DNA of 64,000 nt from a virus (taxonomy: Duplodnaviria; Caudoviricetes), in IMG/VR virus record IMGVR_UViG_3300017814_000114, positions 1 to 64,000 of that record, one strand, 5' to 3'. A program made the position numbers and the translations under genes. How positions within the stretch are numbered: the first letter of the stretch is position 1; every line of letters begins with the position of its first letter. This document shows positions 1,527 to 36,206 of this stretch, one piece after another. Below the pieces are notes generated by a model, which saw nothing but the letters and a program-made list of their open reading frames with translations, was not told where the DNA came from and made no database searches.

Positions 1527-1604
1527 GACGGCTGCCTTTCCTTTCATTTTTGTGCCTTAGCATAAATATATGAGTGTCCAGCTCTATAGGGAATGGCAGC
1601 CGTC
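1527..1604 (+). ncRNA. C4/CI-like antisense RNA scaffold, copy A (remnant element)
   Basis: GACGGCTGCC-T-TTCC...GGAA-T-GGCAGCCGTC outer stem, inner hairpin and unpaired segment; same scaffold as 16800-16870 and 36102-36176. Confidence 0.55.
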
Positions 1605-1721
1605 TTTTGCCTTCTAAAAGTTCTAAACGTATAAATTGCAAGAGCAAACAATCTCATTGCTGGGACACAACAAAAATAAATAGAACAAGATTCGATTAGT
1701 TAGAGAGAAAGAGAATAGAAC

Positions 1722-1824
1722 AATTAAAATATTTTGTCCGAAATTTGTCTGACTTGCTTTAAATAAAGAAGCGCAAACAACTACATTCTAGTTATTTACG
1801 CCTTATTTTGTTGCGGAGACTTGA
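1722..1824. repeat. Left att-associated direct repeat (core GTTGCGGAGACTTGA, 1810-1824)
   Basis: Ungapped 103-bp match to 44592-44694 with 12 mismatches; paired GTCCGA-like arm sites and a hairpin; minus strand ...AGTCTCCGCAA resembles a tRNA-Ser 3' end. Confidence 0.85.
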
Positions 1825-1957
1825 ACTATGCAACTATATAATACAAACAGGGCGCACTTTTTTATAACTGATCATTAATCAAATACGTCTTATACATTTT
1901 GTTCATTTAAAATTATGAATGTCTTATATATGAATGAGTTTTAGCTCATATAAATAT

Positions 1958-2326
1958 CTATTTTTTAAGTAGTTTAACCATTTCTTCTAAAGTTTCAATT
2001 CGCTTATCTTTCTCTTCCAGTAGTAATTTGAGAGACTCTATTTGGGCAGAAAGCTCTTGCTCACGTGTGGAATTATTGCAATTCCCCATAACATTTCCAT
2101 TACCATTAATCGCATTTGAACTATGCCCAAAGTGTATATTTCGTAGAAAAAAAATGTCCATAGACATACCAAAAAAGTCCGCAACCTTTTCAAGCCGCCT
2201 AACAGTTGGGTTACCATTAGTCAATTGACTCAACGAATTTTCAGTAGACCCTAAATAACTTAATAAATCTTTTCCTTTAAGATTTCGCTGTTTTAGTAAA
2301 TCCTTGATTACCTGTCCATTATACAT
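1958..2326 (-). CDS. CI-like XRE-family HTH repressor
   Basis: HTH (LSQLTNGNPTVRRLEKVADFFG), C-terminal coiled coil, divergent from the early operon. Confidence 0.8.
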   Translation of the reverse strand: MYNGQVIKDLLKQRNLKGKDLLSYLGSTENSLSQLTNGNPTVRRLEKVADFFGMSMDIFFLRNIHFGHSSNAINGNGNVMGNCNNSTREQELSAQIESLKLLLEEKDKRIETLEEMVKLLKK

Positions 2327-2435
2327 AATAATAAGTTATTTAATCATATTTAACTTGATAAAATCAAAGATATAAAACTTATTTTACAGTTATAAATCAT
2401 ATCTTTGTAGCATAAATTTAATAATTATTATTGTA
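2327..2435. promoter_or_regulatory. Lysis/lysogeny switch of prophage 1, back-to-back promoters
   Basis: TATCTTTG on + (2400-2407) and on - (2365-2372). Confidence 0.65.
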
Positions 2436-2657
2436 ATGGAAGCAAAAAAACAAGCAAAAAAAACTGAATTGAGTATTAATGACTACTATAATAGTCTTGA
2501 TACTAACGAAAAAAAGCGAGCCTTCAGAGAGAAAGTGATAAACACTTTGGACATACAGTTCATGACATTTTATGATAAAATGCGTAAGAGGAATTGGAAT
2601 AAACTTCAAGAGAGTGCCCTAAAACAAATAGTAGAAGAAGATGCAAAGGGCAATTGA
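2436..2657 (+). CDS. Cro-like small DNA-binding protein
   Basis: Position opposite the repressor, small basic helical protein. Confidence 0.6.
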   Translation: MEAKKQAKKTELSINDYYNSLDTNEKKRAFREKVINTLDIQFMTFYDKMRKRNWNKLQESALKQIVEEDAKGN

Positions 2658-3186
2658 GCTTTATAACACTCCTGATGGAAGAGTTTGCATCAAGCCTGAG
2701 AATGACGCCATGTTCATACTAGATGAAAACAAGTGTGACATCATTCAACCCATGCTGGGTAACATTCATAATTTATATCCTGATGCGTTTAAAAAATTAA
2801 GCGAGATTTATTCGAAATCTTCAAGGAACAAAAAATATTATGAGTTCAGAATGGTTCACCGTTTTTGTCGATGCAACTTCGGCAGCTATGACACGCTCCA
2901 AAAAGATATTGATGCGAACGGCGAATGGCACTTAGAGCAAGTGAACTGTCCACTCCGAGGCGAATGCCCGGAAGAAGGTATCATTTGCATGCCGAAACTT
3001 CATACCGTTCTCTCGGATCGGGAATTTGAAGTAGCTAAATTATTAGGCTATATGTCACCTGAAGAAATCAGCGACGAACTACACCTTTCGATCAGAACGG
3101 TATATAACCACATCCAATCAATCAAATTCAGACTTAAACTAAAAACCATCGCACAAATTGCGACATGGTATAAAAACAAGCAATAA
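2641..3186 (+). CDS. LuxR-type C-terminal HTH regulator with Cys-rich N-terminal domain
   Basis: LSDREFEVAKLL...EISDELHLSIRTVYNH; CPLRGEC motif. Confidence 0.85.
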   Translation: MQRAIELYNTPDGRVCIKPENDAMFILDENKCDIIQPMLGNIHNLYPDAFKKLSEIYSKSSRNKKYYEFRMVHRFCRCNFGSYDTLQKDIDANGEWHLEQVNCPLRGECPEEGIICMPKLHTVLSDREFEVAKLLGYMSPEEISDELHLSIRTVYNHIQSIKFRLKLKTIAQIATWYKNKQ

Positions 3187-3189
3187 CCT

Positions 3190-3717
3190 ATGAATACAAA
3201 AATTATCGCAAGAGTAAACAACGTGGATATCCTATCTACAAGTGACGAACAAATGGTAGCTATCAAACCGATTTGTGATGCTTTGGGCATAGACAGAAAA
3301 CGGCAGCAAGATAAGATAAAAGAGCATCCAATATTATCATTAGTTGGGGGCTTATCGCCCCTAACTGGGAAGGATGGTAAAGAGTATGAAATGTTCTGTT
3401 TGCCTTTCAAGTATGTGTTTGGTTGGCTGTTTACTATCAATCCAAATAATGTGGATGAATTGGCTCGCCCGAACTTGATTAAATTCCAAGAGGAATGTTA
3501 CGAAGCTTTATATCGATATTTTGCAGATAAAGCCACATTCGTGGAACAGAAACAGCTGGAAATAGACAAGCAACTCGGCGTTGTCGAAGAGGCAAAAGGA
3601 TATTTCAAAAATGCAAAGAATGTGTTGTTCGATGCAGAAACAAAACTGCAAAAATTACGTAAGTTGACAATGGACGACTTCGATTTCGAAAGAAGGCAAT
3701 TAAAACTTTTCAATTAA
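3190..3717 (+). CDS. Phage antirepressor (P22 AR N-terminal domain)
   Basis: VAIKPICDALGI...DGKEYEMFCLP...FGWLFTINP; paralogue at 50757. Confidence 0.85.
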   Translation: MNTKIIARVNNVDILSTSDEQMVAIKPICDALGIDRKRQQDKIKEHPILSLVGGLSPLTGKDGKEYEMFCLPFKYVFGWLFTINPNNVDELARPNLIKFQEECYEALYRYFADKATFVEQKQLEIDKQLGVVEEAKGYFKNAKNVLFDAETKLQKLRKLTMDDFDFERRQLKLFN

Positions 3718-3741
3718 TTTTCACCCTCTCAAAACCCTATT

Positions 3742-4059
3742 ATGAAAATATATGTTAGCGTGCCAATTCGTGACCGCAAAGGTTCATCAGATATGGAAAA
3801 GAAAATAGCGGCAAAGCAACAAGCCGATGCAATCAAAAAGAAATTGCTCAAAGAGGGACACGAAGTGATAACCCCCTTTGACATAAATCCCATCGATAGC
3901 GATGTTTCCTATGAGGAAGCAATGGGTGAAGATATAAAAGTATTGCTGAAATGCGACGGAATATACAAAGCTTCTGGTTGGGGACATTCCAGAGGTTGCC
4001 AATTCGAAAGCATGGGAGCTCAAATATATAACAAGATCATTATAGAAGAAGAATTATGA
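3742..4059 (+). CDS. DUF4406-like (nucleoside deoxyribosyltransferase-like fold) protein
   Basis: KIYVS...P...CDGIY...GW..SRGC..E. Confidence 0.8.
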   Translation: MKIYVSVPIRDRKGSSDMEKKIAAKQQADAIKKKLLKEGHEVITPFDINPIDSDVSYEEAMGEDIKVLLKCDGIYKASGWGHSRGCQFESMGAQIYNKIIIEEEL

Positions 4060-4325
4060 ATAACATACAAAAATTGCACCCGGTTTCCGAATGGGAAAAG
4101 AAAAGACCGACAAGCGTGTATTATCAACAGATATATTTTACAGATAAATCACATGAGGTCAAACTTGTAAAAGGTACGATCCAAATTATTAGGCGAGTAA
4201 GAAGTATGGGCGTGCCGGTCAATGAGACAGTTTCCAGAAAGGCACACTGGGACGGATACGGCTGTTGCTATGTAGGAACTCACAACAAGCGAAACCGTGA
4301 TTATGATATTCCTTTTAATGACTGA
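4056..4325 (+). CDS. Hypothetical phage protein
   Basis: Coupled ORF in the early operon. Confidence 0.65.
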   Translation: MNNIQKLHPVSEWEKKRPTSVYYQQIYFTDKSHEVKLVKGTIQIIRRVRSMGVPVNETVSRKAHWDGYGCCYVGTHNKRNRDYDIPFND

Positions 4326-4351
4326 TTCACGATAGTCTTAAACTAACTGCA

Positions 4352-7300
4352 ATGATAAGCGAGAATGTAATAGAACAGGTTCTTAACCGCTCCGACATCG
4401 TTGATGTCGTAAGCGGTTTCGTAACCCTCAAAAGAAAAGGACGGCTTTACGAAGCGTGCTGTCCTTTTCACCAAGAAAAAACGCCGTCCTTCAAGGTTGA
4501 TCCCGCCCGTAACACATGGCATTGTTTCGGGGCTTGTTCGGAAGGTGGTAACGTGATCAAGTTCGTGATGAAACACGAAAGCCTTTCTTTCCCGGAAGCG
4601 GTCAAGTGGCTGGCCGCAAAATATGGCATTGCGGTAGAGGAAGAACAGCCGACTGAAGAACAACGGCTTAAAGCGCAAAAGCGGGAATCTCTTTTTATCG
4701 TTAACCAAAGGGTTGCCGAATATTATGCGGATAACATTCTGTCCTCTGCCGGCGATACCGCTCGTAAATATGCCGAAAGTCGCTGGGGTAAGGACCTTGT
4801 CCGAGATATGGGAATCGGCTTCGCTCTCGATGAATGGCAGGGGCTTATCAATTTCGCACAGTCGGCCGGATTGTCTACCGACTTACTGCTTGAACTTAGC
4901 ATTATCAAAAAGAGTGATAAGGGGAAACTGTACGACGTTTACCGCAATAGAGTGATGATACCTATTCGGGACCGGTTTCATAGAGTGATAGGTTTTACCG
5001 CACGGGACATTTCCAATGTAGAGGGTACGGCAAAATACATGAATTCTGCCGAAAGCGATATCTACTCGAAGAGCAAATCGGTTTTCGGAATTGAAACGGC
5101 AATCAGAGAAGCCACCAGGCAAGACAAATTCAATCTTGTCGAGGGAGCTCCGGATGTGATCAGTATGCAGAAAGTCGGAATCTGCAACACCATTGCCTCA
5201 CTCGGATCGGCGTGGACTGCACAACAATTCGAATCACTCAAACGATATGCGACAAAACTTTGTTTTCTTCCGGATGCAGACGAAATCAAGTCTGGAGAAA
5301 AATACGGTACCGGCATAAAAAAAGTAATGGTCAACGGACTGCTGGCCATTCGAAACGGTTTTTCAGTATCAGTTCGGGAGATTCCGCTTGGAAAAGGAAA
5401 TAGTAAGCAAGACCCGGGATCATATATAACCGGGAAACCAATCTATAACGACCTGGAAGAAGAGGACTTTATTACCTGGTATGCCAAATACATCTTCGAT
5501 GATTGCGAGACGACCGACGACAAGAGCAGGGCCATTAATACGATCTGTTCGATGGTGGCTACTCTCAAGGATGACGTCAAAGAAGAGATGTACGTTTCCA
5601 AGCTACAAGATATCTATAAGAACAAAGCTCTTTGGACTACGGCCATGAACCAGGCACGTAAAGAGATTCAAGCTAAAAAGGTATTGAACGACAGCAAAAA
5701 GATAGACCGCGACCTTTATTCGAAATATGGTTTTTTCGAAGACCGCAATGCTTATTACTCCATTACGGAGAAAGGCACGAATTTCCAATGGTCTAATTTT
5801 GTGATGATTCCGATGTTTCACATAAAGGACTCATTAAACCCCAAAAGATTGTACCGGATTAAGAACGTCAACAACCAGGAAGATATCATCGAAATGAAAC
5901 AGGAAGACCTTGTTTCGCTTTCGAAATTCAAGCAAAAGGTTGAGGGGCTGGGAAATTATATTTGGTTGGCCACAGAGAGGGAAATGACCAAACTGAAGAT
6001 GTTTCTGTATGAGCAGACGGAGACTGCCTTAGAAATAACACAGTTGGGATGGCAACGCAAAGGTTTCTTTGCTTATGGCAATGGCGCTTTTGATACGGAC
6101 TGGCATCCGGTTGACGAATACGGTATCGTCAGATTAAAGTCCGGAAACTTTTATTTGCCGGCATCTTCCAAAATCTATCGCGAGGACGTAAAACTCTTCC
6201 AATTCGAACGTCGATTCGTACATTTGAATTATTCTGCGATATCGCTTGGCCAATATGCGGAAAAACTTATCGGAGTATTCGGAAACAACGCCAAAATCGG
6301 ACTGTGCTTCTTACTTGCGACTCTCTTTAGGGATATCATCGTAGGTTATACGAAAAGCTTTCCCATTCTAAATCTATTCGGTCCGAAAGGTTCCGGTAAA
6401 TCGGAGTTGGGACACTCGTTGATGTCTTTCTTCATCAGCGAAAACACACCGCCGAACATTCAGAACGCAACGATCGCAGCAATGGCCGACCTGGTTGCTC
6501 AATGTGCAAACGCTCTCGTACATATCGATGAATATAAGAACTCGATCGATATCGACAAACGGGAATTTTTAAAAGGCTTATGGGATGGTTCGGGACGTTC
6601 CCGCATGAACATGGATCGGGACAAGAAGAGAGAAATAACATCCGTCGATTGCGGAGTGATCTTGTCCGGGCAAGAAATGACAACAGTGGATATCGCTCTG
6701 TTTTCCCGATTGATTTACCTCACATTCAATAAAACGGAATTTTCCTCTTCCGAAAAACAACGGTTCAACGAATTGAAAGAATTACGTAAACTGGGGTTAT
6801 CGCATTTGACTTTACAGTTGCTTCGACATCGGGCCAAAATGGAAGCGGACTATTACAACAATTACAAGCAATGTATGTCGGAACTCAACGAAGCGCTCCG
6901 GGGCGAACAGATTGAAGATCGTATACAGAGGAACTGGGTTATTCCATTAGCTACTTTTCGTACGCTGGAGAGTAGCCTTGACGTTCCCTTTTCTTATAAA
7001 GAGGTGTTTAACATCACTGTCGAGGGCATCAAGACGCAAAACAACGAATGCAAAAGCAATAATGAATTGGCCGGCTTTTGGAATATGGTTTCTTACCTAT
7101 TGCAAAATGGTGAGATATACATAGATAGTGATTACCGTATAGATTATATGGATAAACTGAAGACGAACATTACTCGCGATCAAATGGAATTCAAAAGACC
7201 GAAGCCGATTCTAAGAATGCGAAAGAACAGAATCTTTATGTTATATAAGAAATCGGCCAAACAAGTCGGCGATACGGTTTTACCCACCGAATCACTCAAA

Positions 7301-7594
7301 TTCTATCTTGAAAATTCTAAAGAATATCTCGGCACCATGAATTCAGTAAGGTTCAAGAACATCCAAAAAGGTATCGAAGTTCAAAAGGAAGTACCGGCAT
7401 ACATGGGAACACCAGGTGCAAACTTTCAAAAGACTTCCCAAAACGACCAAGCAATGTGCTTCGATTACGAACTCATAGAGGAACATTACAATATCAATCT
7501 CGAAATAGATACTCCTTATTCCGAAAAGGAAAGAAAGGATCGTGAAGAGGGAGAAATAATTAATATCGATCCTCAAACTAACTTGCCATTTTAG
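4352..7594 (+). CDS. DnaG-like primase (CHC2 zinc finger, Toprim) fused to a P-loop helicase-like domain
   Basis: CPFHQEKTPSF, VEG..DV, DAD, Walker A GPKGSGKS, HIDEY. Confidence 0.92.
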   Translation: MISENVIEQVLNRSDIVDVVSGFVTLKRKGRLYEACCPFHQEKTPSFKVDPARNTWHCFGACSEGGNVIKFVMKHESLSFPEAVKWLAAKYGIAVEEEQPTEEQRLKAQKRESLFIVNQRVAEYYADNILSSAGDTARKYAESRWGKDLVRDMGIGFALDEWQGLINFAQSAGLSTDLLLELSIIKKSDKGKLYDVYRNRVMIPIRDRFHRVIGFTARDISNVEGTAKYMNSAESDIYSKSKSVFGIETAIREATRQDKFNLVEGAPDVISMQKVGICNTIASLGSAWTAQQFESLKRYATKLCFLPDADEIKSGEKYGTGIKKVMVNGLLAIRNGFSVSVREIPLGKGNSKQDPGSYITGKPIYNDLEEEDFITWYAKYIFDDCETTDDKSRAINTICSMVATLKDDVKEEMYVSKLQDIYKNKALWTTAMNQARKEIQAKKVLNDSKKIDRDLYSKYGFFEDRNAYYSITEKGTNFQWSNFVMIPMFHIKDSLNPKRLYRIKNVNNQEDIIEMKQEDLVSLSKFKQKVEGLGNYIWLATEREMTKLKMFLYEQTETALEITQLGWQRKGFFAYGNGAFDTDWHPVDEYGIVRLKSGNFYLPASSKIYREDVKLFQFERRFVHLNYSAISLGQYAEKLIGVFGNNAKIGLCFLLATLFRDIIVGYTKSFPILNLFGPKGSGKSELGHSLMSFFISENTPPNIQNATIAAMADLVAQCANALVHIDEYKNSIDIDKREFLKGLWDGSGRSRMNMDRDKKREITSVDCGVILSGQEMTTVDIALFSRLIYLTFNKTEFSSSEKQRFNELKELRKLGLSHLTLQLLRHRAKMEADYYNNYKQCMSELNEALRGEQIEDRIQRNWVIPLATFRTLESSLDVPFSYKEVFNITVEGIKTQNNECKSNNELAGFWNMVSYLLQNGEIYIDSDYRIDYMDKLKTNITRDQMEFKRPKPILRMRKNRIFMLYKKSAKQVGDTVLPTESLKFYLENSKEYLGTMNSVRFKNIQKGIEVQKEVPAYMGTPGANFQKTSQNDQAMCFDYELIEEHYNINLEIDTPYSEKERKDREEGEIINIDPQTNLPF

Positions 7595-7619
7595 CTTGAG
7601 GCGCTTATCTTGTAGAAGG

Positions 7620-7656
7620 AATGCCGACACTGTGAAGTGCCGGCATTTTTATTTTT
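7620..7656 (+). terminator. Terminator after primase
   Basis: ATGCCG...CGGCAT stem plus T-tract. Confidence 0.7.
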
Positions 7657-7697
7657 ACCAAACCAAAACCGCTCTCACATTTTCGGGTGATTTATTC

Positions 7698-7925
7698 TTC
7701 TACACTTTCTACAACTTCTACATTATTATATATCAATGTTTTAAGTATAAAAAGTATCTTCTATAAGCTTCTACAAATTTCTACAAATGTAGAGAATAAG
7801 AAGAAACTTCTACAAATAGCTACTATTTCTACACTTTTTCTACAAAAAACCCATTTGAATAATTAAGCCAAATCATTGATAATAAGATATATAAATCATT
7901 TGTAGAAAGTGTAGAAGCTGTAGAA
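7698..7925. repeat. Putative replication origin 1 with TTCTACA iterons
   Basis: 8 TTCTACA and 3 TGTAGAA copies; terminal triplets at 9-bp period in inverted orientation; AT-rich. Confidence 0.75.
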
Positions 7926-8019
7926 GGCAAAATACATGTCTCACAAATCAAAAAAATGTAATTGATTTTGCCCCTATTTTCAGTTATATATACTATATTT
8001 GTATCAAAATCAATTATAT

Positions 8020-8556
8020 ATGAATAGTTTTGTTATCTATGTAAAACTAGAGAAGTATTTGTCTCAATGGTTGACCAATGCGTTAGGCTCTCCGGTACGC
8101 TTTCCTGCACAAAGCAATGAGAATGCAGTCATCAGACGCTTTCTTCAGAAACTGCCTAAGGATAAAGCCCCTATTATGGCCTCTGAAGAACTGACACCGA
8201 TCTTTATTCCAGACTCCAAAGCCAAAGACCCACGGTTATTCAATTACTTTGGGCCTCGTGCACAAGAAGCACTGACCGAAGCGATCGAAGATTTGTTTCG
8301 GCGTAATCTCTGGGCAGAACTTGGCGATCTACTTGACGGAACGGTTGGCCTTAACAAGACGATTGCTGCCTGGTGCGAAATGCACGGCATCGATGATGAC
8401 TATTCGGAGACAGTACGCCAAAAATTCTATCGAATTCGTAAGGCTTATACGCAGAAAGGTATCTTTTTAAATTCTTTAACAAGAAAAAGAGAGGATAAGG
8501 AAGCCGATTTTAAACAGACTCGAACAAACCCGAACAGCTATGCACAATTCAGTTAA
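8020..8556 (+). CDS. Conserved phage protein, candidate late-transcription activator
   Basis: Homologue of 52140..52637 at the same position; own TATATTTG promoter element; function is inference. Confidence 0.55.
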   Translation: MNSFVIYVKLEKYLSQWLTNALGSPVRFPAQSNENAVIRRFLQKLPKDKAPIMASEELTPIFIPDSKAKDPRLFNYFGPRAQEALTEAIEDLFRRNLWAELGDLLDGTVGLNKTIAAWCEMHGIDDDYSETVRQKFYRIRKAYTQKGIFLNSLTRKREDKEADFKQTRTNPNSYAQFS

Positions 8557-8991: not shown

Positions 8992-9009
8992 CATAAAAAT
9001 CAATCACAG

Positions 9010-16049: not shown

Positions 16050-16116
16050 AAAGTATTAAAACGAATACTTTTTTTCTCCAAAAGGTTGCATATAAGTATT
16101 AAAAGTAATACCTTTG
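16050..16116 (+). promoter_or_regulatory. hicAB promoter with two palindromic operators
   Basis: GTATT-N5-AATAC twice; TACCTTTG at 16109-16116. Confidence 0.65.
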
Positions 16117-16139
16117 TTGCGTCAAACGATAACAATACA

Positions 16140-16334
16140 ATGAAAGTTTATAAGGTAAAGGAAGTAATTAAGATGCTAGAAGCCGACGGATGGGTTAATA
16201 ACTATACCAAAGGCGACCATCGACAATTCACGCATCCGTCTAAAAAAGGGAAAGTTACCGTTAGAGGTAAACTAAGTGAAGAATTGAATCAATTTTTATT
16301 AAACAGTATTTGGAAACAAGCAGGATGGAAATAA
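16140..16334 (+). CDS. hicA: HicA-family mRNA interferase toxin
   Basis: LEADGW...KGDHRQFTHPSKKGKVTV...SIWKQAG. Confidence 0.92.
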   Translation: MKVYKVKEVIKMLEADGWVNNYTKGDHRQFTHPSKKGKVTVRGKLSEELNQFLLNSIWKQAGWK

Positions 16335-16358
16335 CTATTCTGTATAAAAAAATAAATT

Positions 16359-16769
16359 ATGGAAACAATAAAGGTATATATTGATTGGATCGATAAAAAT
16401 TTCGGGGCTACGTTAGAAGATAAAGTTCCTGGAGCTGTCGTGGTTACGGACAAAACTTTTGAAGGCATTAAAAATGCAATTGCGTCGACTCTTTCTTTCC
16501 ATATTGAAGGTATGATGAAAGATAAAGAAGAAGTCCCTTCTTGGCTCGTCAATGGCGAATACGTTTTCGAATATATCCTTACGACCGCCGCTCTACTCCA
16601 TCGCAGTGAGGAATATACTTCACTCGCTGCCATCTCCCGCGTTAGTGGTATCAATGAACAATTGTTAAGCCATTACGCTACGGGACTTAAAAAGCCTAGA
16701 GAAAAGCAACGCGAACGTATTATAACAGGATTGCATAAAATAGGTGAGGAATTTTTAAGCGTTGTGTAG
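16359..16769 (+). CDS. hicB: HicB-family antitoxin with C-terminal HTH
   Basis: NFGA...VPGAV...FHIEGM; GINEQLLSHYATGLKKPR; follows hicA. Confidence 0.85.
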   Translation: METIKVYIDWIDKNFGATLEDKVPGAVVVTDKTFEGIKNAIASTLSFHIEGMMKDKEEVPSWLVNGEYVFEYILTTAALLHRSEEYTSLAAISRVSGINEQLLSHYATGLKKPREKQRERIITGLHKIGEEFLSVV

Positions 16770-16799
16770 TTATCGTTTGACAACATAAAGACACAATGT

Positions 16800-16870
16800 A
16801 CGGCTGCCTTCCGCATATTTCACCTCTTCGGAGTTTGATCTAATATTTTGCTACACGGAACGACAGCCGT
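16800..16870 (+). ncRNA. C4/CI-like antisense RNA scaffold, copy B (orphan, behind hicB)
   Basis: ACGGCTGCCTTCCG...CTC-TTCG-GAG...ACACGGAACGACAGCCGT-TTTTCTGT; scaffold nearly identical to copy C, different unpaired segment. Confidence 0.65.
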
Positions 16871-16879
16871 TTTTCTGTT

Positions 16880-16950
16880 TATTTTAGTTTTTAGCTCCAA
16901 ATTAAAATAGTGATTTACGTTATTTTAATTTGGAGCTAAAAATTAAAATA
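16880..16950. repeat. 30-bp inverted repeat with 11-nt spacer
   Basis: TATTTTAGTTTTTAGCTCCAAATTAAAATA / TATTTTAATTTGGAGCTAAAAATTAAAATA, one G-T mismatch. Confidence 0.9.
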
Positions 16951-22340: not shown

Positions 22341-25300
22341 ATGGCCGATATTAAAGACGATTTACGCAAAAGAGCGACTGAAGTTAGAGACGAACGAAAA
22401 GCAGGGGCTAATACTGCTTTTCGTCTCGGCTCGTTATTATTGGCTATTATTGACGACAGAGTAGATATCGATGATTTAAGTCGGAATTTTCTAAGTCGTA
22501 CATCCGATGATACGGCATCGGGTATTATCGATTTTATCAAAGGGCTGAAGATAGCAGGCAAATCATTATCCGATATCATCCTTTCGACGGATGAAGCCAG
22601 TGATAGCGACATGAAAGATTCTTCCATCTTGTCGGCATTGAAAGCGGCGGGCATGTTTTTACGGAAGGATAAGGAGGATTCAACCGAATTTCTTGTGAAA
22701 CTACTGGGCGGTATCGTTACGACATTTCTGAAGTCTGACAATTTTGAATCGGGTCAATTCGGTTCTGGGTTTGGCGTTTACAAAAAAGCGGACGGCAAGT
22801 CATATATGGAAGTCGACGAGCTGCTGGTGAGAGTGAAAGCGATCTTTAGCGAACTTGAAATTCGGAAGCTATCGTACGTTGGTGGTAACATTATCTTCTC
22901 GAGTGCGGGTTCGAAGATTGTTCGCGTAGAAGAAACTTCCGACACTTATCGTTGCTATTTCATGGCTGATGACGGAACGACGGCCACAACAAACGGTTTT
23001 GCTGTTGGCGACCAAGCACGCTGTCAGACTTTCAACATCAAGGCGGGCAAATATACAGGTGTAGCGAATAAGTATTATTGGCGGCTCGTTACGGCTGTAG
23101 GGGACGATTATATTGAACTTTCAAAGACAGACTGTGACGGAACGGATATACCTACTGCTGGAGATTCTATCGTCCAAATGGGCAACAGAACGAATACCGC
23201 CAGACAGAATCTGATCGAGATAGTCGTTACCGGTGACGATGCTCCGGCATTCATCGAATATGCGGGCGTGAATGCCTATTCGTTAGAGGGTAAAAGGAAA
23301 ACGGTGCTTTCTCCCAAAGGAGATGAATTCGTTGCCAAATCATTCAAAATATTGGTGAATGATGGTGCCGTACGTATCCCTGCTGATTCTGGCGAATGGA
23401 TTAAAGGCACTCCATGTTCATATTATAATCGCGTATCACACAATGGGTCTTTGTGGCTCTGTATTATTCCTGAAGGAAAAACAACGACCGACGAGCCGAT
23501 GGAAGGTTCGACCTCTTGGCAAAAACAAGTATCCAAAGGCAACGATGGGACTGACGGCAAAGACGGTAATGATGGTGCAACTGGCCCACAAGGTGAAAAG
23601 GGAGATAAAGGAGATACAGGTAGTACAGGAGCTAAAGGTGACAAGGGCGATACCGGCGCACAAGGCATACAAGGGTTACAAGGTTTGCAAGGCGAAAAAG
23701 GTGATCAAGGTATCCCGGGTGTTAAGGGAGATACTGGAGCGCAAGGCTCTAAAGGGGATGCCGGGCAAACGTCTTACTTCCATATCAAATACAGCGATTA
23801 CGCCGACGGCACTAACATGAATGAGAATGGCGGTGCATACATCGGCACATACGTCGATTTCACACAAGCTGATTCTGCCGATAAAACAAATTACACCTGG
23901 GTACTTGTTAAAGGTGCACAAGGGACAAAGGGTGATCAAGGCATTGCGGGGTCAAACGGCGCGAACGGTCAGACGTCTTATCTGCATATAGCCTATGCCG
24001 ATAGTGCGGATGGCAAAACGAATTTCAATCAAGATTCTGGTGCATACATCGGTCAATACGTAGATTTCACGCAAACCGACTCTGCCGATTATACAAAATA
24101 CAATTGGACGCTTATCAAGGGAGCTAAGGGTGATAAAGGGGATACCGGCGCACAAGGCATACAAGGATTACAAGGTATACAGGGTGACAAGGGAGAGCAA
24201 GGTATTCCAGGCACAAAAGGAGACAAAGGAGATGCCGGGCAAACGTCTTACTTCCATGTCAAGTACAGCGATTACGCCGACGGTACCAATATGAATGAAA
24301 ATGGCGGCGCATACATCGGTACATACGTCGACTTCACGCCCGCCGATTCTGCCGACAAGACAAAATACACCTGGGTACTCGTTAAAGGTGCACAAGGCAC
24401 AAAGGGTGATCAAGGTATTGCGGGTGCAAACGGCGCGAATGGGCAGACGTCTTACCTGCATATAGCCTATGCCGATAGTGCAGACGGTAAGACGAACTTC
24501 AACCAAGATTCAGGAGCCTACATCGGTCAATACGTAGATTTCACGCAAACAGATTCTTCCGATTATACAAAATACAATTGGACACTTATTAAGGGAGCTA
24601 AGGGTGATACTGGCGCGACCGGTGCACAAGGTATACAAGGATTGCAAGGTATACAGGGTAACAAAGGTGATCAAGGCATTCCTGGCACAAAAGGAGACAA
24701 AGGAGATACCGGGCAGACTTCATACTTTCATGTCAAATACAGCGATTACGCCGACGGTACCAATATGAATGAAAATGGTGGTGCATACATCGGCACATAC
24801 GTCGACTTCACATCAGCCGATTCTGCCGACAAAACAAAATACACCTGGGTACTCGTCAAAGGTGCACAAGGGACAAAGGGAGAGCAAGGTATTGCGGGGT
24901 CAAACGGCGCGAATGGGCAGACGTCTTACCTGCATATAGCCTATGCCGATAGTGCGGACGGTAAAACGAACTTCAACCAAGATTCTGGCACATACATCGG
25001 CCAATACGTGGATTTCACGCAAACCGACTCTTCCGATTATACGAAATACAATTGGACGCTTATCAAAGGAGCTAAGGGCGACACTGGAGCGCAAGGGAAT
25101 AAAGGCGATACAGGCGCAAAGGGTGATACCGGTGCGACTGGAGAAAAAGGAGCTCAAGGAGTTCAAGGAGAGAAGGGAGATAAAGGAACAGCCGGAAATG
25201 ACGGCTATTCCTGTTCCCTCACGTCCTATTCGACGATGTTGAACTCGGATTCGAACGGTGTGATAGGAAGTCTTGCAGCTGCCGTAACGGTCGTAAAACT

Positions 25301-28518: not shown

Positions 28519-28519
28519 A

Positions 28520-29151: not shown

Positions 29152-29186
29152 ACCGAGAGGTTGAAGAAATAATTTTAGATTGAGAG

Positions 29187-29230
29187 AAGGAAGTTCCGGA
29201 TAAAATTCTGGCACTTCCTTTATTTATTTT
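29187..29230 (+). terminator. Terminator after lysis cassette
   Basis: AAGGAAGT...ACTTCCTT plus T-rich tail. Confidence 0.65.
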
Positions 29231-29284
29231 CATTGTGCAACAAACAAAAGTTGATTATCTTCGCAGCATCAAAACACAAGTAAT

Positions 29285-29512
29285 ATGGAAACAGCAACAA
29301 AAATGATTATGAGCGACATTCTCTTGGATATCTCTTGGGCAAGACTATCTACAAGATATCTCGGCAAATCACGCTCTTGGCTGCACCAAAAACTAGACGG
29401 TATTAATAGTAACGGTGGCGTCGGAGAATTTTCTGCTGAAGAAAAACAACAGCTCAAAGGTGCTTTATGCGATCTTTCGGAACGTATACGCCAAGCAGCT
29501 GAAAAGATTTAG
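29285..29512 (+). CDS. DUF5053-family HTH protein (antitoxin-like, orphan)
   Basis: ISWARLSTRYLGKSRSWLHQKLDG...FSAEEKQQLKGAL.DLS.RI. Confidence 0.8.
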   Translation: METATKMIMSDILLDISWARLSTRYLGKSRSWLHQKLDGINSNGGVGEFSAEEKQQLKGALCDLSERIRQAAEKI

Positions 29513-29553
29513 GCCTTTCTTTTATATTTTGATTGCCGTTTAGGTCACGGCTT

Positions 29554-29586
29554 TGCTCCGAGTCTTTTATGGATTCGGAGCATTTT
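29554..29586 (+). terminator. Terminator
   Basis: TGCTCCGAGTC...GATTCGGAGCA. Confidence 0.7.
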
Positions 29587-29811
29587 ATCCCTCCTTTTTT
29601 ATCTTAAAAGTCTTTTCTAAAATAAACCTTGCGGTTGGATTAAAGATAGCGATAGAGATTCTTTTACTGAACGAATAATAAGAGGGAAACTGCAAATGTT
29701 ATATTATTAATAATAAATTTTATTGATGTTTTTTATTAATAAAGTTGATTGGAATTGCAATTATATTAATAACTTTGCACAAGAAGTTGAAACAAACAGA
29801 TAATAGAAATT

Positions 29812-30033
29812 ATGGAAAAGGATATCGAACTAAAGAGACAACAGTTGATACAAAAGATTCAAGAAATGCCTGTGTCAAAATCGGATCATCCTTTAAGTAA
29901 GCATGAAGTCTATACTAAAATAATGGAAGCTGGCTATAGACGTGCTTTTGCGACTCCTGAATCAGCAAAAAAATTTCTTCAAAGAGCAGGAGTTTATAAT
30001 TCAAAAGGAGAACTTGCTAAGGGATATAAATAA
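29812..30033 (+). CDS. Small protein coupled to ART gene, putative antitoxin
   Basis: TAATG stop/start overlap; own TAACTTTG promoter element. Confidence 0.55.
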   Translation: MEKDIELKRQQLIQKIQEMPVSKSDHPLSKHEVYTKIMEAGYRRAFATPESAKKFLQRAGVYNSKGELAKGYK

Positions 30034-30902
30034 TGAACGCCGATTTATATTCCAAAAGGCCTAATCTAATTATAGGATTTCATGGGTGTGATCAATCAAT
30101 CGTAGAAAAAGTACTGAATGGAAAAGAGGAATTAAAGAGAAGTACAAACGATTATGATTGGTTAGGAGAAGGAATATATTTTTGGCAGAATAGCCAAGAA
30201 AGAGCTATTCAATATGCTAACGAAGCAAAAGAACGCAAAAATTCAAATATAACAAATCCAGCTGTTATTGGCGCAATTATTGATCTCGGATTATGTCTTG
30301 ACTTATTGGATTATAAGCACTTGCAAGATGTGAAACGTTCTTATGAAGTCTTAAAAGCCGATTCCCAAAATCCCCTCCCCGAAAATAAAATGGAAATTGG
30401 TGGTACAAAAATGCTACGATATTTGGATAAAACCGTAATCCAATCAGTCCATACGGCAAGAAAAGATCAATATCAGAAACTTCAAGAGATGGAAGCACGT
30501 ATTAGAGCTCTCATCTACATGGTTAAATCTTCAAAATATTCTATTGAGGACTATATAGAATGTACTAATGATTTTGTGGATTCACTGAGATCATATAGTG
30601 CCGACACTTTCGAGTCAGATTTCACAGAAGAGAGGAAGAATGCATTCATTAATATAATAACTAATCAAGAGAAGAAGGATGCAATACATATATTAGAGCA
30701 ATGGGCTGATAATATCAAATTAAATTCTTCTTTGGTACAACCATATGATTCTGTAAGAAGTACATTTCTAGAAGGACAAGAGTTATATCCTGATGCCGGA
30801 TTTAGAGAAAAAAATCATATCCAGATTTGTATTCGAAATACAAATTGCATAAAAGGATATTTCTTGCCTAAAGATATGGATGAATGTTATCCTAATCCAT
30901 AA
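30033..30902 (+). CDS. ADP-ribosyltransferase-fold toxin-like protein
   Basis: GFHGC, DWLGEGIYFW, HIQICIRN (H-Y-Q type triad). Confidence 0.7.
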   Translation: MNADLYSKRPNLIIGFHGCDQSIVEKVLNGKEELKRSTNDYDWLGEGIYFWQNSQERAIQYANEAKERKNSNITNPAVIGAIIDLGLCLDLLDYKHLQDVKRSYEVLKADSQNPLPENKMEIGGTKMLRYLDKTVIQSVHTARKDQYQKLQEMEARIRALIYMVKSSKYSIEDYIECTNDFVDSLRSYSADTFESDFTEERKNAFINIITNQEKKDAIHILEQWADNIKLNSSLVQPYDSVRSTFLEGQELYPDAGFREKNHIQICIRNTNCIKGYFLPKDMDECYPNP

Positions 30903-30949
30903 CAAAAACGTGTATCTTCTTTATATCAAAAAATCAAACCTAAAAGACC

Positions 30950-31282
30950 ATGAATAAAATGAAGTATGTAAAACCTGACGATGTGAAATCACCGAAAAAT
31001 CACCTCGAATTAGTACGAGTATTGTATGATGGTAAAGATGACCCAAGTTATTCAATTGCAATAGTCAAATATGACGACGGTGATGAAAGTTATGCAATGA
31101 GATGGAACATCTCTTCTGCTGAATATGATGATCCTGACAAAGTGCAGGGAAAGAAGCTCTGTATCGGTAACCCTGTTTCAAGAGGTTATCCCACATGGTT
31201 TGTACTACCTTTACCTGTTAAAGTTGACGAAGAGGATGATTTTTTAAACCGCTTAAAGAACTTGATGAAAAAAGCAAAATAA
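30950..31282 (+). CDS. Conserved-looking hypothetical protein
   Basis: V.SPK...MRWN...GNPVSRGYPTWFVLP. Confidence 0.65.
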   Translation: MNKMKYVKPDDVKSPKNHLELVRVLYDGKDDPSYSIAIVKYDDGDESYAMRWNISSAEYDDPDKVQGKKLCIGNPVSRGYPTWFVLPLPVKVDEEDDFLNRLKNLMKKAK

Positions 31283-31331
31283 GAGAGTGTAATTAACACA
31301 TCGATTTAATTAAGCTCTTTACCGCAATATC

Positions 31332-31367
31332 AAAAAAGGAACATCGCACGTCGATTGTTCCTCTTTT
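31332..31367. terminator. Bidirectional terminator between convergent genes
   Basis: AGGAACA...TGTTCCT flanked by A and T tracts. Confidence 0.65.
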
Positions 31368-31392
31368 CTAATATGGCTTATAAAAAAGAGAA

Positions 31393-32583
31393 TTATTTTT
31401 TTATATTATTTTTCATATATGCATTGCATATCTTTATCGCCTCTCTCATTTCTTTTACTTCTTCTACTTTTCTCTCTATTTTAGTTTCATTTTCTTTAGA
31501 AATTTCAAGGGCTTTTTTTATAGCGCTTATCAGTTTTTTGAGTTCTTCTTCATCCAAAGAAATTCTTTTAACATCCCAGCTCATTTTATTTGTCATCTTA
31601 GTTGCCATGTTAATTATCTCCTGATGATTACTATACAACAAATCCGCTTTTGCTAATACCTCTTTTATTTCATTAAAATGCTCAATTGGGCAGCCTTCAT
31701 ATTTTATAGAATCAATATCACGAATATAATTATTTTGCTCTTCTATGAGAGTATAAATTTTTTGAATATCTCCTTGATAAAGTCGACTATATTTATAGCC
31801 AATCTTAATCGATATAAATTCTTCGTAAACAAAATTTACATCGATTTCTTCATTTATTAACACTTTATCTATCAATCTGTCAATTGAACTAATTAATTTT
31901 CGCAACGGATTACCTATAATTGCTATTAGTATGTATACAATAGCCATTATCCCCGAAATCACCAAAGAAAATCTAATACTCAACATATAACCCTCAGTAC
32001 GACTAAAATCTAAAATTCCACAAAGTAGCATCAAAGAAGCATACAACAAATAAGGCCAGTTTTTTACATATCCAGCCTCTTGTTTAAATTTATGCCTACA
32101 ATACATTTCCATGCCTTTTAAAGTGATATAACCAGAAAATGCAAAAGATATTATAAAATTAAAAATAAGCGAACTTTCATGTAATGAAGTTGATTTAATA
32201 TCTAATATTTCTAGCAATGGTCTTAGTAATAGATTTGGCCATATATATGAAACAAATAGAAGAGTTGGTATTATGATATCAACTATACCTAAAACTTGTC
32301 CAGATGATTTTACAAACCGATACGGATAATATTCATAGTTCTTTTTTTTATAAAAATCTTTAAATAATAAAAGGCTAAGCAACATCGTACAAAAGCTTCT
32401 TGAAAATAAAAAGATCTCTTGTGGGTTTTTCGTTAACTTATTATTAAATAAATCAATTAGTATCCATAATAAAGTAGCTATTGTCCCAATCAAGGCCCAT
32501 ATAGACCATCCGAAGTCTTTATTTTTCTCTGAGACTCTTTGTCTTTCAGAATATAAAATATTTAGAAGTTCATCCTTTTCCAT
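31393..32583 (-). CDS. Polytopic membrane protein with C-terminal coiled coil
   Basis: About six hydrophobic segments; very AT-rich; inverted relative to the phage. Confidence 0.7.
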   Translation of the reverse strand: MEKDELLNILYSERQRVSEKNKDFGWSIWALIGTIATLLWILIDLFNNKLTKNPQEIFLFSRSFCTMLLSLLLFKDFYKKKNYEYYPYRFVKSSGQVLGIVDIIIPTLLFVSYIWPNLLLRPLLEILDIKSTSLHESSLIFNFIISFAFSGYITLKGMEMYCRHKFKQEAGYVKNWPYLLYASLMLLCGILDFSRTEGYMLSIRFSLVISGIMAIVYILIAIIGNPLRKLISSIDRLIDKVLINEEIDVNFVYEEFISIKIGYKYSRLYQGDIQKIYTLIEEQNNYIRDIDSIKYEGCPIEHFNEIKEVLAKADLLYSNHQEIINMATKMTNKMSWDVKRISLDEEELKKLISAIKKALEISKENETKIERKVEEVKEMREAIKICNAYMKNNIKK

Positions 32584-32793
32584 AAAACATTTTTCTTACA
32601 AAGATATATGTTTCATTTTATTTCAGAATAAAATCCCGCAAAATATAAATTATTAAATCATTAGTGCAAGATCAGTCAAGACAAAACTTTAATCTTATAG
32701 TTTTTACTACACAATCATGAAACCTCTAAATTTTTATAAATTCTTTTTGAAAAGAAATAATTTTCCTCTACATTTGACTTCAAATTTCAATAC

Positions 32794-33858
32794 ATGAAAA
32801 CAAAGTTTACCATCCCATCTAAATTTAGACCATCATTTAAAGGAAAGGTTTATATCATTATAATTCTTTTTTTCAGCCCCTTTATATGCGTCTTTATTAA
32901 TTATAGTACATCATTATATCTTGGTGACCTATACACTTTCGGGATACTAGATCGAAAAGATTTCTTCACGGTATGGATAGCTTTATTTGGAGCAATAGGT
33001 ATTGCAATTAATATATACCAAAATCAAAAGAGGACGGTTAACCAAGACCGACAATTAGAGAATCAAAACAAACAATTACAAAACCAAGAAGAACAACTCA
33101 AAGAGCAAGAGAAGCAAATTGAACTACAAAGTAAATCGCAACGTGATAGTAGATTTTCTAAAGGAATAGAATTATTGGGCAATGACAACGAATCGGCTCG
33201 AGCTGGAGCTGCTTATAGCTTATATTTTTTAGCGAAAGATTATCCAGATGAATTTTCAAAACCAGTATTTGAGATACTATGTTCCCACATCAGAACTCTC
33301 ACCACATCCGAAGAGTATTTAAAGAAACATCCAACAGTATCGAATGAGGTACAAACAATATTAGACTTACTATTTAAAAATCAATCATTATTAGATTGGG
33401 AATCAGAAGAAAACTTTGATGAAGAAAGAATAAGAGACACATTATTTTCTAAGTTTTCTGCGAATCTTCAACATTCAAATTTACAAGGAGCTGATTTAAT
33501 GACAGCAAATTTATACAATGCAAAATTATTCCGCACTAACTTAGCAGGAGCAGAACTTATTGGAGCGTATTTGGAAATGGCCGTTTTATCTAAGACTATA
33601 TTTAGCGGGGCATCATCTTTGGCTATAGCTAATTTAAAAGGAGCCTATTTAGGATCTATTAATTTAAGGGGGGTTAATTTGGAAGGAGCTATTTTGGAAG
33701 GAGCAACCTTAATTCATTTAAAAGAGGTAGATTTATCATTAGTTGATCTGGAAGGAGTAATTATCAGTTCCAGTATGAGACCATCCCTTGAACAAAGTAG
33801 CATCGATTTATCTGGCGTTATTTGGATTGATGACGAAGAACGAAAAAAGAATAATTAA
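32794..33858 (+). CDS. Membrane-anchored pentapeptide-repeat protein
   Basis: Two TM helices, Gln-rich coil, RFSKGIELLG..R.GA.YSL, A(D/N)Lxx repeats. Confidence 0.85.
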   Translation: MKTKFTIPSKFRPSFKGKVYIIIILFFSPFICVFINYSTSLYLGDLYTFGILDRKDFFTVWIALFGAIGIAINIYQNQKRTVNQDRQLENQNKQLQNQEEQLKEQEKQIELQSKSQRDSRFSKGIELLGNDNESARAGAAYSLYFLAKDYPDEFSKPVFEILCSHIRTLTTSEEYLKKHPTVSNEVQTILDLLFKNQSLLDWESEENFDEERIRDTLFSKFSANLQHSNLQGADLMTANLYNAKLFRTNLAGAELIGAYLEMAVLSKTIFSGASSLAIANLKGAYLGSINLRGVNLEGAILEGATLIHLKEVDLSLVDLEGVIISSSMRPSLEQSSIDLSGVIWIDDEERKKNN

Positions 33859-33903
33859 TAAAGCAAATAGCTATAATTTCACTTATACTATAAACACATT
33901 ATC

Positions 33904-34830
33904 ATGGATGATATATTAAAAGAAGTTCATTGTACAGATGCTAAAGATTTTATTTCAAAGTTTTCGTATGGAGGTGAATATTTTCATTTAAGAACTGACA
34001 ATTTCATTTTCAGAGGTGAACCTTCAGATCAATATTCCCTCATACCAAGTTCTTTGCGAGAAGAGAATCGAACAAAAATCGAGGAAATAATAAGGAATCT
34101 CGCTCCTGAATTCTCAAAAGACAATTTTGATTTATCACAAGAATATAATTGTAATCAAATTACTTCAGAATATGCGCTGCTCAACGTATTTTTCCAAAAA
34201 TGTGATTACAACGGTTTATACATTCCTGAGATAAACGATCTTAGGCTTTTAAGAGGACACTACACTTATTTAGCAACAGAAATGGAGAATATAGATGTCT
34301 GGCTACCACTTAAATATATTGAACTCGCAGGTTTAGCTCAACATTATGGAATATATACAAGACTGCTTGATTGGACTCAAGATCTTAATGTCGCTTTATA
34401 TTTTGCAGTATCTGGCTACATGCTAAATAAAACTACCGAGAATCCAGATAACCATCCTAAAAATATAGTAATATGGGCATTAAATACAGAGATTGTAGTA
34501 AATAACAAATCCGATATGCCGGGATTAAAAATTACTGTCCCAAAATATAATAGTAATCCTAATTTATGTGCACAAAAAGGAGTTTTTACCTTGTGGCAAA
34601 CACATAAAAATAACAAGAATCTTACTGATAGAGCCCCTTTAAATAAGTTGATCGAAGAAAATCCTAAGCTTTTAGGAAATGTAAAGAGCGGTAATCCGTT
34701 ATATAAGATATATATTCCAACCCAAGATTACCAAGGACTAAAAACTCATTTAGAGACATCAGGTTATGATTCTTCTAGATTATTTCCTGGATATAGAGGC
34801 GTAGCCAAAAGCCTTTTAAGAAATATTTAA
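33904..34830 (+). CDS. FRG-domain protein
   Basis: IFRGE..L.PS..R, LAQHYG.YTRLLDWT....ALYFA, AQKGVF, LFPG. Confidence 0.9.
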   Translation: MDDILKEVHCTDAKDFISKFSYGGEYFHLRTDNFIFRGEPSDQYSLIPSSLREENRTKIEEIIRNLAPEFSKDNFDLSQEYNCNQITSEYALLNVFFQKCDYNGLYIPEINDLRLLRGHYTYLATEMENIDVWLPLKYIELAGLAQHYGIYTRLLDWTQDLNVALYFAVSGYMLNKTTENPDNHPKNIVIWALNTEIVVNNKSDMPGLKITVPKYNSNPNLCAQKGVFTLWQTHKNNKNLTDRAPLNKLIEENPKLLGNVKSGNPLYKIYIPTQDYQGLKTHLETSGYDSSRLFPGYRGVAKSLLRNI

Positions 34831-34866
34831 ACTGAATATATTTAATCAAATTATAAATGACTAATC

Positions 34867-35895
34867 ATGAAAAATGTTGGCATAGAATTAGTAAATCCAC
34901 AGAAAGGATATGTTGCATTACCCTATACAGATGAACAACTATCGCAATTCATTAAAAGTTTATTGGGTACTCCTCAAACAATCTCTAAAAAAATTGAAGG
35001 CGTTTTTGTTATACAACTAAGTGACATACAAAGTTTTAATGATTTAATTTGCCAAAGAGTCGCACAACAAAATCAGAGTAAACTACTTGAAGTAAAATCA
35101 ACAATCTATTTTTCAGACAAATCAAATATAACACTAAACAGTTATGATGATTTAATTAGTTACTACGAGATAAAACCTCTATTATCAATTGGAATAAGAA
35201 TAACATGGAGTTTTCTAATTAATTTTCCAGATAAAGAAACTCCTGAACGACAAGAAATAGAATTATTTTATTGTGCTAACAAAAGGAAGCTCTTGACAAA
35301 TTCAGATGTTAGCAGTGAAAGCTACTTTAATATTGAAATTAGACATACACAAAGGACATGGGGTGTTGATATTGAGAATATTATTGAAGACCAGATAGAT
35401 TCTATAAAACAAAAAATATCTAAATTTAGATTTTTTGTTAAAAGAAATTCATCAGAAATAGCGTTCTTATTAGTAATGTTCATTTTAATCATATTTTTTC
35501 AAGGATTCTATACAGCAAAAAATAAATACATCACTACACAAAAGGAAGGACTTTACTATTATATTGATCACAACAAAGACATTGGAAAAAAAATAGATTA
35601 CACAATGAAAGAGATAATAATAAACAAAAAGCTAGAGAACAATTATCTAGACAACATATACATAGTCTTAACCATACCAATTCTTCTAGCCATCGGATTA
35701 TGGATTAAGGTAATGGCTTCAAGAATGCCAAAAAGTTTTCTAATATTCAGCCGAAAAAGTTATGACGAATATAATGACTATAAGAAAGTTAAAAATAGAG
35801 ATTGGATAATGTTTTGGATATCTATTATAGTTAGCATACTAGCTGGAATTTTTTCTAATTATCTATATAGTTTCATGATAAACCTATTCAACTAA
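34867..35895 (+). CDS. Hypothetical protein, soluble N-domain plus three C-terminal TM helices
   Basis: Hydrophobicity pattern; AT-rich. Confidence 0.7.
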   Translation: MKNVGIELVNPQKGYVALPYTDEQLSQFIKSLLGTPQTISKKIEGVFVIQLSDIQSFNDLICQRVAQQNQSKLLEVKSTIYFSDKSNITLNSYDDLISYYEIKPLLSIGIRITWSFLINFPDKETPERQEIELFYCANKRKLLTNSDVSSESYFNIEIRHTQRTWGVDIENIIEDQIDSIKQKISKFRFFVKRNSSEIAFLLVMFILIIFFQGFYTAKNKYITTQKEGLYYYIDHNKDIGKKIDYTMKEIIINKKLENNYLDNIYIVLTIPILLAIGLWIKVMASRMPKSFLIFSRKSYDEYNDYKKVKNRDWIMFWISIIVSILAGIFSNYLYSFMINLFN

Positions 35896-36003
35896 TTCAC
35901 AATAAACAGCATCAATATTACTTTTGTAATAGTTATCAACTATTTTCTAATTTTTCTCCCCTTTTCCTTTGCTGTCTCAAATATTCTTTCGATATTTGCC
36001 CCA

Positions 36004-36083
36004 GCTAAACAGTAGTGAAATGTCTTTCACTTCGCAGAGCGCGGTTAATGCTCAACGATTTACGTCGGGCTTTTTTTATGCCC
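36004..36083 (+). promoter_or_regulatory. Leader with antisense target (seqA/a1-like) and attenuator hairpins
   Basis: GCTAAACAGTAGT complementary to the copy C guide; directly after GATATTTG; GGGCTTTTTTTATGCCC hairpin. Confidence 0.6.
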
Positions 36084-36101
36084 CACATACATATAAGCCA
36101 T

Positions 36102-36176
36102 GCGGCTGTCTTCCGGGTATTTTTTTCTCTTCGGAGTGAGATTTACTACTGTTTAGCGACACGGAACGGCAGCCGT
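36102..36176 (+). ncRNA. C4/CI-like antisense immunity RNA, copy C
   Basis: Outer stem, cUUCGg hairpin, guide TTACTACTGTTTAGCG (36143-36158) perfectly complementary to 36190-36205. Confidence 0.75.
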
Positions 36177-36206
36177 TTTTCTGTCGAAACGCTAAACAGT
36201 AGTAAT

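Follow-up and report, generated by a model that had tools for sequence, protein, structure and literature searches.

Candidate c4/CI-like antisense immunity RNAs with phage-specific pairing segments in temperate phages of gut Bacteroidales

In phages P1 and P7, sequence differences in the pairing segment of the small RNA c4 give phage-specific immunity, and the c4 operon includes an antirepressor; c4 (RF01695) is recorded for Proteobacteria and their phages. In phage P22, the antisense RNA sar prevents an antirepressor gene from initiating translation. The CI RNA of phage P4 is matured by RNase P and PNPase and acts through premature transcription termination, and both CI and the CA RNA of N15 act in trans. 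Here we describe a structured element that occurs in four copies in the 92,051-bp IMG/VR provirus record IMGVR_UViG_3300017814_000114, of which the first 64 kb (64,000 nucleotides, the whole stretch analysed and hereafter the window) hold three. Read from sequence, these copies probably represent an uncatalogued family of ~75-90-nt structured antisense RNAs in temperate gut Bacteroidales phages. The family presents the layout of c4 and P4 CI on a different scaffold. For antisense-RNA immunity of this type, which is documented in phages of Proteobacteria, no Bacteroidota description was found in Rfam 15 or in the papers searched, which yielded nothing on such RNAs in Bacteroidales.

The outer-stem pattern CGGCTGYC-N45-70-GRCAGCCG has three matches in the window and none in 100 shuffled versions, and these matches, all on the + strand, lie where a preliminary description of the sequence had placed three loci sharing one scaffold. 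The cUUCGg hairpin that it reported in copies B and C and the three guide strings that it listed are also present as quoted. Its set of three was nonetheless incomplete, as the covariance model built here (R1), the seed alignment of which includes copies A, B and C, finds exactly four copies in the 92-kb record, all on the + strand. These score 55-73 bits, against at most 21 bits anywhere on the minus strand. The three copies of the window all fold more stably than their own shuffles, and copy C is canonical and presumably working. The four copies are the following:

1527-1608, + strand: copy A, 60.6 bits with R1, fold of -37.2 kcal/mol (z -6.3 versus shuffles)
16799-16875, + strand: copy B, 55 bits with R1, fold of -19.2 kcal/mol (z -3.2 versus shuffles)
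36101-36181, + strand: copy C, 72.7 bits with R1, fold of -31.3 kcal/mol (z -4.9 versus shuffles)
75066-75148 of the genome, beyond the window, + strand: copy D, 61.6 bits with R1

Around copy C, a short variable segment of the RNA (the guide, or box 2) is complementary to two sites, one in the leader upstream (box 1) and one downstream at the start of the first open reading frame (ORF), termed box 3:

36004-36016, + strand: box 1 of copy C, 13 nt of the leader that are complementary to the guide
36034-36083, + strand: conserved leader element GCAGAGCGCGGTTAATGCTCA and a small hairpin (36067-36083), between box 1 and copy C
36101-36181, + strand: elements of copy C, namely helices P1, P1b, P2, P3 (with cUUCGg) and P4, then the U-run
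36190-36205, + strand: box 3 of copy C, 16 nt perfectly complementary to the guide, with 1 nt between its end and the ATG at 36207
36207-36467, + strand: ORF1, 86 aa with one C-terminal membrane helix, member of a conserved small family
37198-41562, + strand: tape-measure gene 3' of the small ORFs led by C (Pfam PhageMin_Tail; PHROG tape measure)

This layout is general in the family, as seen in the 68 distinct members with full flanks, for which 4542 non-cognate RNA/flank pairs served as control. In 57/68 members, the 120 nt that follow the RNA contain a perfect complement of 12 nt or more, compared to 1.2% of the non-cognate pairs. Such a box 3 is 12-21 nt long, the median being 17 in cognates and 7 in non-cognates, and it ends between -2 and +7 nt from the ATG of the next ORF. 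Similarly, an upstream box 1 of at least 10 nt is found 70-150 nt 5' of the RNA in 40 of the 68 members (4.7% of the non-cognate pairs), and all three boxes stand on one strand within ~200 nt. In members with shorter perfect matches, the duplexes are mostly interrupted. The interior mismatches comprise 19 G·U-compatible changes, no reverse transition and 3 transversions, a count from which only identical sequences were removed and whose entries are hence incompletely independent. This one-sided spectrum indicates RNA-RNA pairing on this strand and would be unexpected for DNA recognition. The self-targeting layout of the c4/CI type that had been proposed earlier is thus found at C, at D and in these 57 members, and at neither A nor B. 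The leader element GCAGAGCGCGGTTAATGCTCA and its hairpin with a U-rich loop recur at D (genome positions 75005-75052) and at many other loci (L024, L064, L175 and L213 among them), and may form a processing signal or a protein site.

Single-sequence folds agree on an outer stem P1 of 8-9 bp, with the U-run directly 3' of it, which is extended by a CCC/GGG helix (P1b) and opens into a three-way junction. Helix P2 joins a variable 5' segment to the 5' part of the guide and is capped by the small hairpin P3, the loop of which is mostly of the UNCG type (UUCG 19, UCCG 6, CUCG 5 and UACG 4). P4 is a conserved 4-5-bp hairpin with UAGC, UGGC, UCGC or UGAC as loop, and the 3' part of the guide supplies its 5' strand and loop. 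The guide, which had been described as an unpaired segment, is thus not simply unpaired: its 5' part is engaged in P2, with a 5' segment that co-varies with it, and its 3' part in P4. When the structure was imposed on 73 distinct sequences, 93.1% of the cells were paired, versus 29-53% with the partners slid. In the same sequences, with an alignment fitted to P1/P1b, two-sided changes affected 78 cells against 25.5+/-4.1 in shuffles (0/500) and the covariation score reached 0.241 against 0.156 in shuffles (0/500), so that the covariation of the stems on which the preliminary description had made its proposal depend is present. P3 and P4 both covary, and the UNCG loops occur on one strand only. 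Taken with the cognate boxes (57/68 against 1.2%) and the 19:0 mismatches, these covarying helices bear out the earlier picture of a constant scaffold with an exchangeable guide.

The family is large and taxonomically confined. More than 118 loci were recovered in IMG/VR with the outer-stem pattern and more than 114 with an independent pattern for the interior motif; the latter scan recovers the same outer stem, whose variants consist of wobbles and a C-G/U-A switch at one position. The copies confirmed by R1 show the features of the family, namely the outer stem with P1b, a P3 hairpin of the UNCG type, the P4 hairpin and a terminal U-run, and in species-representative genomes 29/29 such loci belong to Bacteroidales (Bacteroides, Phocaeicola, Mediterranea, Muribaculaceae, Sodaliphilus, Prevotellaceae and Porphyromonadaceae). 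Matches to the pattern alone, in other phyla, fail the R1 model. An A-like copy outside the seed, in the Bacteroides metagenome-assembled genome (MAG) L253, scores 55.7 bits with R1. Five other phage records carry one RNA copy each, two of these records being estimated 95-100% complete, and GenBank phage records gave one weak, unannotated match. In the whole window, no match to an Rfam 15 family attains the gathering score, and the Rfam C4-type models have no match in 500-nt segments around A, B and C even at E<=10. The membership in C4 that had been put forward for checking is thus not borne out, and the family does not belong to RF01695. Another Bacteroides MAG (L233) contains two complete tandem units, each with leader box, RNA, box 3 and ORF (6751-6832 and 7093-7177), that lie 340 nt apart and have different codes, the first with a split box of 10+7 nt.

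The first ORF after the RNA encodes, in the commonest subfamily (L011/L041, 29 loci), an antirepressor that combines Rha and KilAC (Pfam E=4e-18 and 5e-22). At C, D and many other loci, it encodes instead a protein of the ORF1 family, 81-91 aa long with one C-terminal membrane helix and a basic tail, a motif like DCxV..SDxxY and the tail CVYKAKK. The small ORFs adjoining the RNAs, including ORF1, have no match in Pfam, PHROGs or Atlas. Operons of the C/D type continue with further small ORFs and then with structural genes.

Compared to c4 of P1/P7, the resemblance is that of a small structured RNA in the leader of the operon that it would control, with same-strand complementary sites on both sides (a1b1 and a2b2 in c4), the downstream one over the translation start of the first gene. 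In the L011/L041 subfamily the operon also contains an antirepressor (Rha-KilAC), while at C and D its first gene encodes the small membrane protein. The position of ORF1, a one-helix protein, also recalls that of icd in P1. On the contrary, the scaffold with its 8-9-bp outer stem, three-way junction, UNCG hairpin and P4 is unlike c4, a single contiguous box of 13-21 nt replaces the two short a/b segments of c4, the 3' end resembles an intrinsic terminator, and the hosts are Bacteroidales and not Proteobacteria. The order of box, RNA with complementary box, and box in one leader is also that of CI in phage P4 (seqA-seqB-seqC) and of CA in N15, and the RNA proposed here would, like them, originate from the leader of the very operon that it silences. 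No similarity to either in sequence or by model was found, and the position of the downstream box at the start codon suggests translational occlusion here, unlike the termination caused by CI. Finally, sar is a cis-antisense RNA from the opposite strand, whereas the RNA described here is on the same strand and would pair by a short programmable segment.

Given these elements, we consider it likely that the copies of canonical layout encode a c4/CI-like antisense immunity RNA, the code of which would block the start region of the first gene of the switch operon. The leader would be transcribed through box 1, the conserved leader element and the RNA, the 3' end of which would form at its own 8-9-bp outer stem and U-run. 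The variable segment, which extends from the 3' strand of P2 across the junction to the 5' strand of P4 and its loop, would then pair in trans with box 3. As box 3 adjoins the AUG of the first ORF, this pairing is predicted to occlude the translation-initiation region and thereby to repress translation, and it may also promote termination; the RNA could pair with box 1 in the leader too. The operon so regulated would open with the Rha-KilAC antirepressor in the commonest subfamily or with the small one-helix membrane protein at C and D. The code would be phage-specific, and the different codes of C and D would make the two tandem prophages of the record (X and Y, delimited below) hetero-immune. 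The layout, the cognate specificity, the pairing of G·U type, the covariation, the strand and the taxonomic range are directly supported by the observations above; trans action, translational repression and the formation of the RNA ends are what we infer from them.

Several points weigh against this proposal. A discrete RNA and its ends are predicted from sequence alone, and in a read-through transcript cis pairing of the boxes is also possible. The near-invariance of P1 is in part a recruitment effect, since the sequence of the outer stem was contained in one search pattern, although the scan with the interior pattern gave the same stem. The signal for P2 is weak, with median duplex energies of -3.3 kcal/mol for cognate and -2.7 kcal/mol for non-cognate strands (P=0.002). 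Copy D, which has its own code, shows one A·C mismatch in box 3. Lastly, the operons of C and D start with a gene of the ORF1 family and run into tail genes, which is not a classical immunity context.

Copy B departs from the canonical arrangement by its surroundings:

16086-16769, + strand: hicA/hicB-like cassette (Pfam HicA_toxin E=4e-17; HicB_lk weak, E=0.036)
16883-16949, unstranded: near-perfect AT-rich hairpin of 67 nt between B and the 343-aa gene, kept in the relative L284 and missing in the relative L285
17024-18055, + strand: gene of the structural module encoding 343 aa, 3' of B

The hicA/hicB-like cassette ends 30 nt before B, in the place of the canonical leader, and the leader motif was not found upstream of B. 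As had been noted earlier, B has no cis target, no box being present within 600 nt (longest downstream complement, 7 nt). It is however not the only orphan of the window as had been thought, since A lacks a cis target too, with a longest complement of 9 nt within 600 nt and of 8 nt downstream. Two other loci (L068 and L088) have, in front of the homologue of the 343-aa gene, four small ORFs preceded by a canonical RNA with its box 3; at B, box 3 and the small ORFs are missing and the AT-rich hairpin stands in their place. The RNA itself has a C·A mismatch in P1 and GCTAC instead of GCGAC in P4, and its fold is the weakest of A, B and C. Two relatives encode 343-aa proteins 96-97% identical to that of the window; one of them (L284) has no RNA at the position of B, and the other (L285) has a 69-nt remnant scoring 24 bits that keeps the stem with a compensatory change, the cUUCGg hairpin and the U-run. 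The lack of leader, boxes and ORFs, the damaged helices, the loss in relatives and the absence of a target above chance (see below) suggest that B is a relic at a mosaic junction. Located 30 nt beyond the hicB-like stop, B ends in TTTTT directly after its 8-bp stem, which contains one C·A mismatch, and it is now probably at most the stem and U-run terminator of the hicAB cassette.

Copy A lies close to the end of a prophage, the limits of which are given by the following features:

1722-1824, unstranded: attL of prophage X, a 103-nt repeat 88% identical to 44592-44694 (self-BLAST), the right end of which is the 3' end of a tRNA-Met on the minus strand
43380-44588, - strand: integrase of prophage X (Pfam Phage_integrase)
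44592-44694, unstranded: attR of prophage X and attL of prophage Y, same 103-nt repeat

A second, related integrase is located at ~90.9-92 kb of the genome. The 103-nt repeat and the two related integrases indicate that the record consists of two tandem prophages at the same tRNA-Met site, prophage X (~1825-44590) with copies B and C and prophage Y (44695 to the end of the record) with copy D. The MAG L253 matches window positions 1-1824 at 86-94% identity and continues with the host genes TetR and SDR; upstream it carries holB, MTHFR, an ABC transporter and GntR. Its positions 6736-6839 match both att repeats, and its minus-strand tRNA-Met(CAT) at 6824-6897 covers the final 16 nt of the repeat. 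The RNA of copy A and its flank are thus found at 94% identity at an unoccupied site, which places A on the host side of attL, beyond the limits of prophage X and ~120 nt from attB (tRNA-Met), and not with the phage-borne copies among which it had been counted. Two additional species from the same small GTDB genus have A-type copies, one of these sites being occupied by a prophage, so that with the L253 genome the locus is present in 3/301 sampled genomes of the bacterial family. The copy of one of these two species shows a compensatory G-C to A-U change in the outer stem. Copy A is structurally intact, with divergent P4 and guide, and none of the A-type copies in related genomes has a cis box. 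An imperfect downstream match of A (1655-1677) was rejected, since it can pair only with a bulge and the A-like copies show no covariation there. An identity of 11-14 nt that A shares with the beginning of a phage gene (MSVQP...) at five related loci was also discarded, being sense and not antisense; an 11-mer is expected by chance about once in 2.4 Mb. Most simply, A is a terminator-like relic or a domesticated copy.

Including B and the locus L081, clear orphans amount to ~3 of the 68 distinct members with full flanks. Further copies without cognate box were observed in the chromosome of the genome that holds L253, at a distinct locus (L272, G001:C4:244526-244605), and on an IMG/VR contig (L134).

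The same layout could be explained otherwise. A purely cis-acting leader switch, in which box 2 pairs with box 3 to close the start and box 1 pairs with box 2 to open it with no free RNA acting in trans, appears unlikely. The presence of three boxes on one strand over such a short distance would permit it, and the 221-nt leader of C indeed pairs box 1 with box 2 in its minimum-energy fold and box 2 with box 3 in its centroid. However, the conserved scaffold (P1-P4 with its UNCG loop) is more elaborate than such a switch requires, the conserved GC stem and U-run before box 3 would set free a discrete RNA, with most transcripts ending ahead of box 3, and the precedents with the same layout, c4, CI and CA, act in trans. 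It is very improbable that the boxes are sites read at the DNA level, be they operators of a co-evolving repressor or recombination sites, with the supposed RNA a mere terminator. A word of 13-17 bp in three copies, two direct and one inverted, would be compatible with operators, and the outer stem is strongly conserved in sequence and not in pairing alone. Yet the excess of G·U-compatible over reverse transitions effectively refutes this explanation, and the covariation of P3/P4, the single-strand UNCG loops and the gap in model score between the two strands also speak for an RNA.

The preliminary description had further proposed that B acts in trans on the corresponding operon of competing phages, as an acquired RNA-guided cross-immunity; extended to A, this view of the orphans as trans guides seems quite improbable. 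The members of the family do differ mainly in their guide, and the hetero-specific codes of C and D coexist in one lysogen. However, B has lost leader, boxes and target ORFs, its helices are damaged, and near-identical relatives have it truncated or not at all. Its guide finds at best an 11-nt complement in prophages X and Y (P=0.76, 1000 dinucleotide shuffles), at most 9 nt in the boxes of 65 other members, and no site with up to 2 mismatches in the three related host genomes. In IMG/VR, its 17-mer has 8 matches compared to ~7 estimated by chance, none of them in a leader of the family or at a start codon, and the exact interior sequences of A and B have no other copy. Matches of this orphan guide are therefore not enriched over shuffled controls. 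These comparisons rely on exact matches, as RNAduplex energies of the four guides against the 92-kb record were undiscriminating because long loops were allowed. In favor of A as a guide, A-like copies are kept in three related host genomes, with the compensatory stem change mentioned above, and its guide has a 15-nt perfect complement in prophage Y (61623-61637, P=0.006 versus shuffles) and a second one of 13 nt (genome ~77848-77860). Both are nevertheless inside long ORFs (60581-62353 and the tape-measure gene), the 15-mer not at the start, the 15-nt match is broken in the A-like copy of L253, and the guide of A matches the boxes of other members over at most 9 nt, so these matches are probably due to chance. 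There is little likelihood that the A-type RNA, conserved in three related species and also at an unoccupied site, is a domesticated phage immunity RNA that the bacterium retains next to attB and that interferes in trans with the lysis-lysogeny switch of phages integrating there. If it were, orphan scaffolds would form a repertoire of programmable anti-phage guides held by hosts or prophages; with one guide a decaying relic (B) and another in host DNA (A), the idea of orphan guides is currently unsupported.

Should the antisense immunity mechanism proposed here for the canonical copies be true, many temperate gut Bacteroidales phages would set their immunity by an RNA code of 13-21 nt that can be read from sequence. 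Metagenomes would then allow the prediction of immunity groups and of compatible poly-lysogens, as exemplified by the tandem prophages X and Y, whose codes differ. Bacteroidales are mostly devoid of Shine-Dalgarno pairing, and the mechanism would show how translation is blocked in a phylum largely without it. It would also offer a compact programmable repressor for Bacteroides genetics.

Two other features of the prophages were observed. Antirepressor genes of the P22_AR_N type, separate from the RNA-led operon, are found in the early region of X (2641-3717, beside a LuxR-type regulator) and of Y (50750-51282). In addition, a tail-fibre gene encoding 1534 aa contains internal tandem repeats of ~480-990 nt with 81-90% identity (23628-25091).

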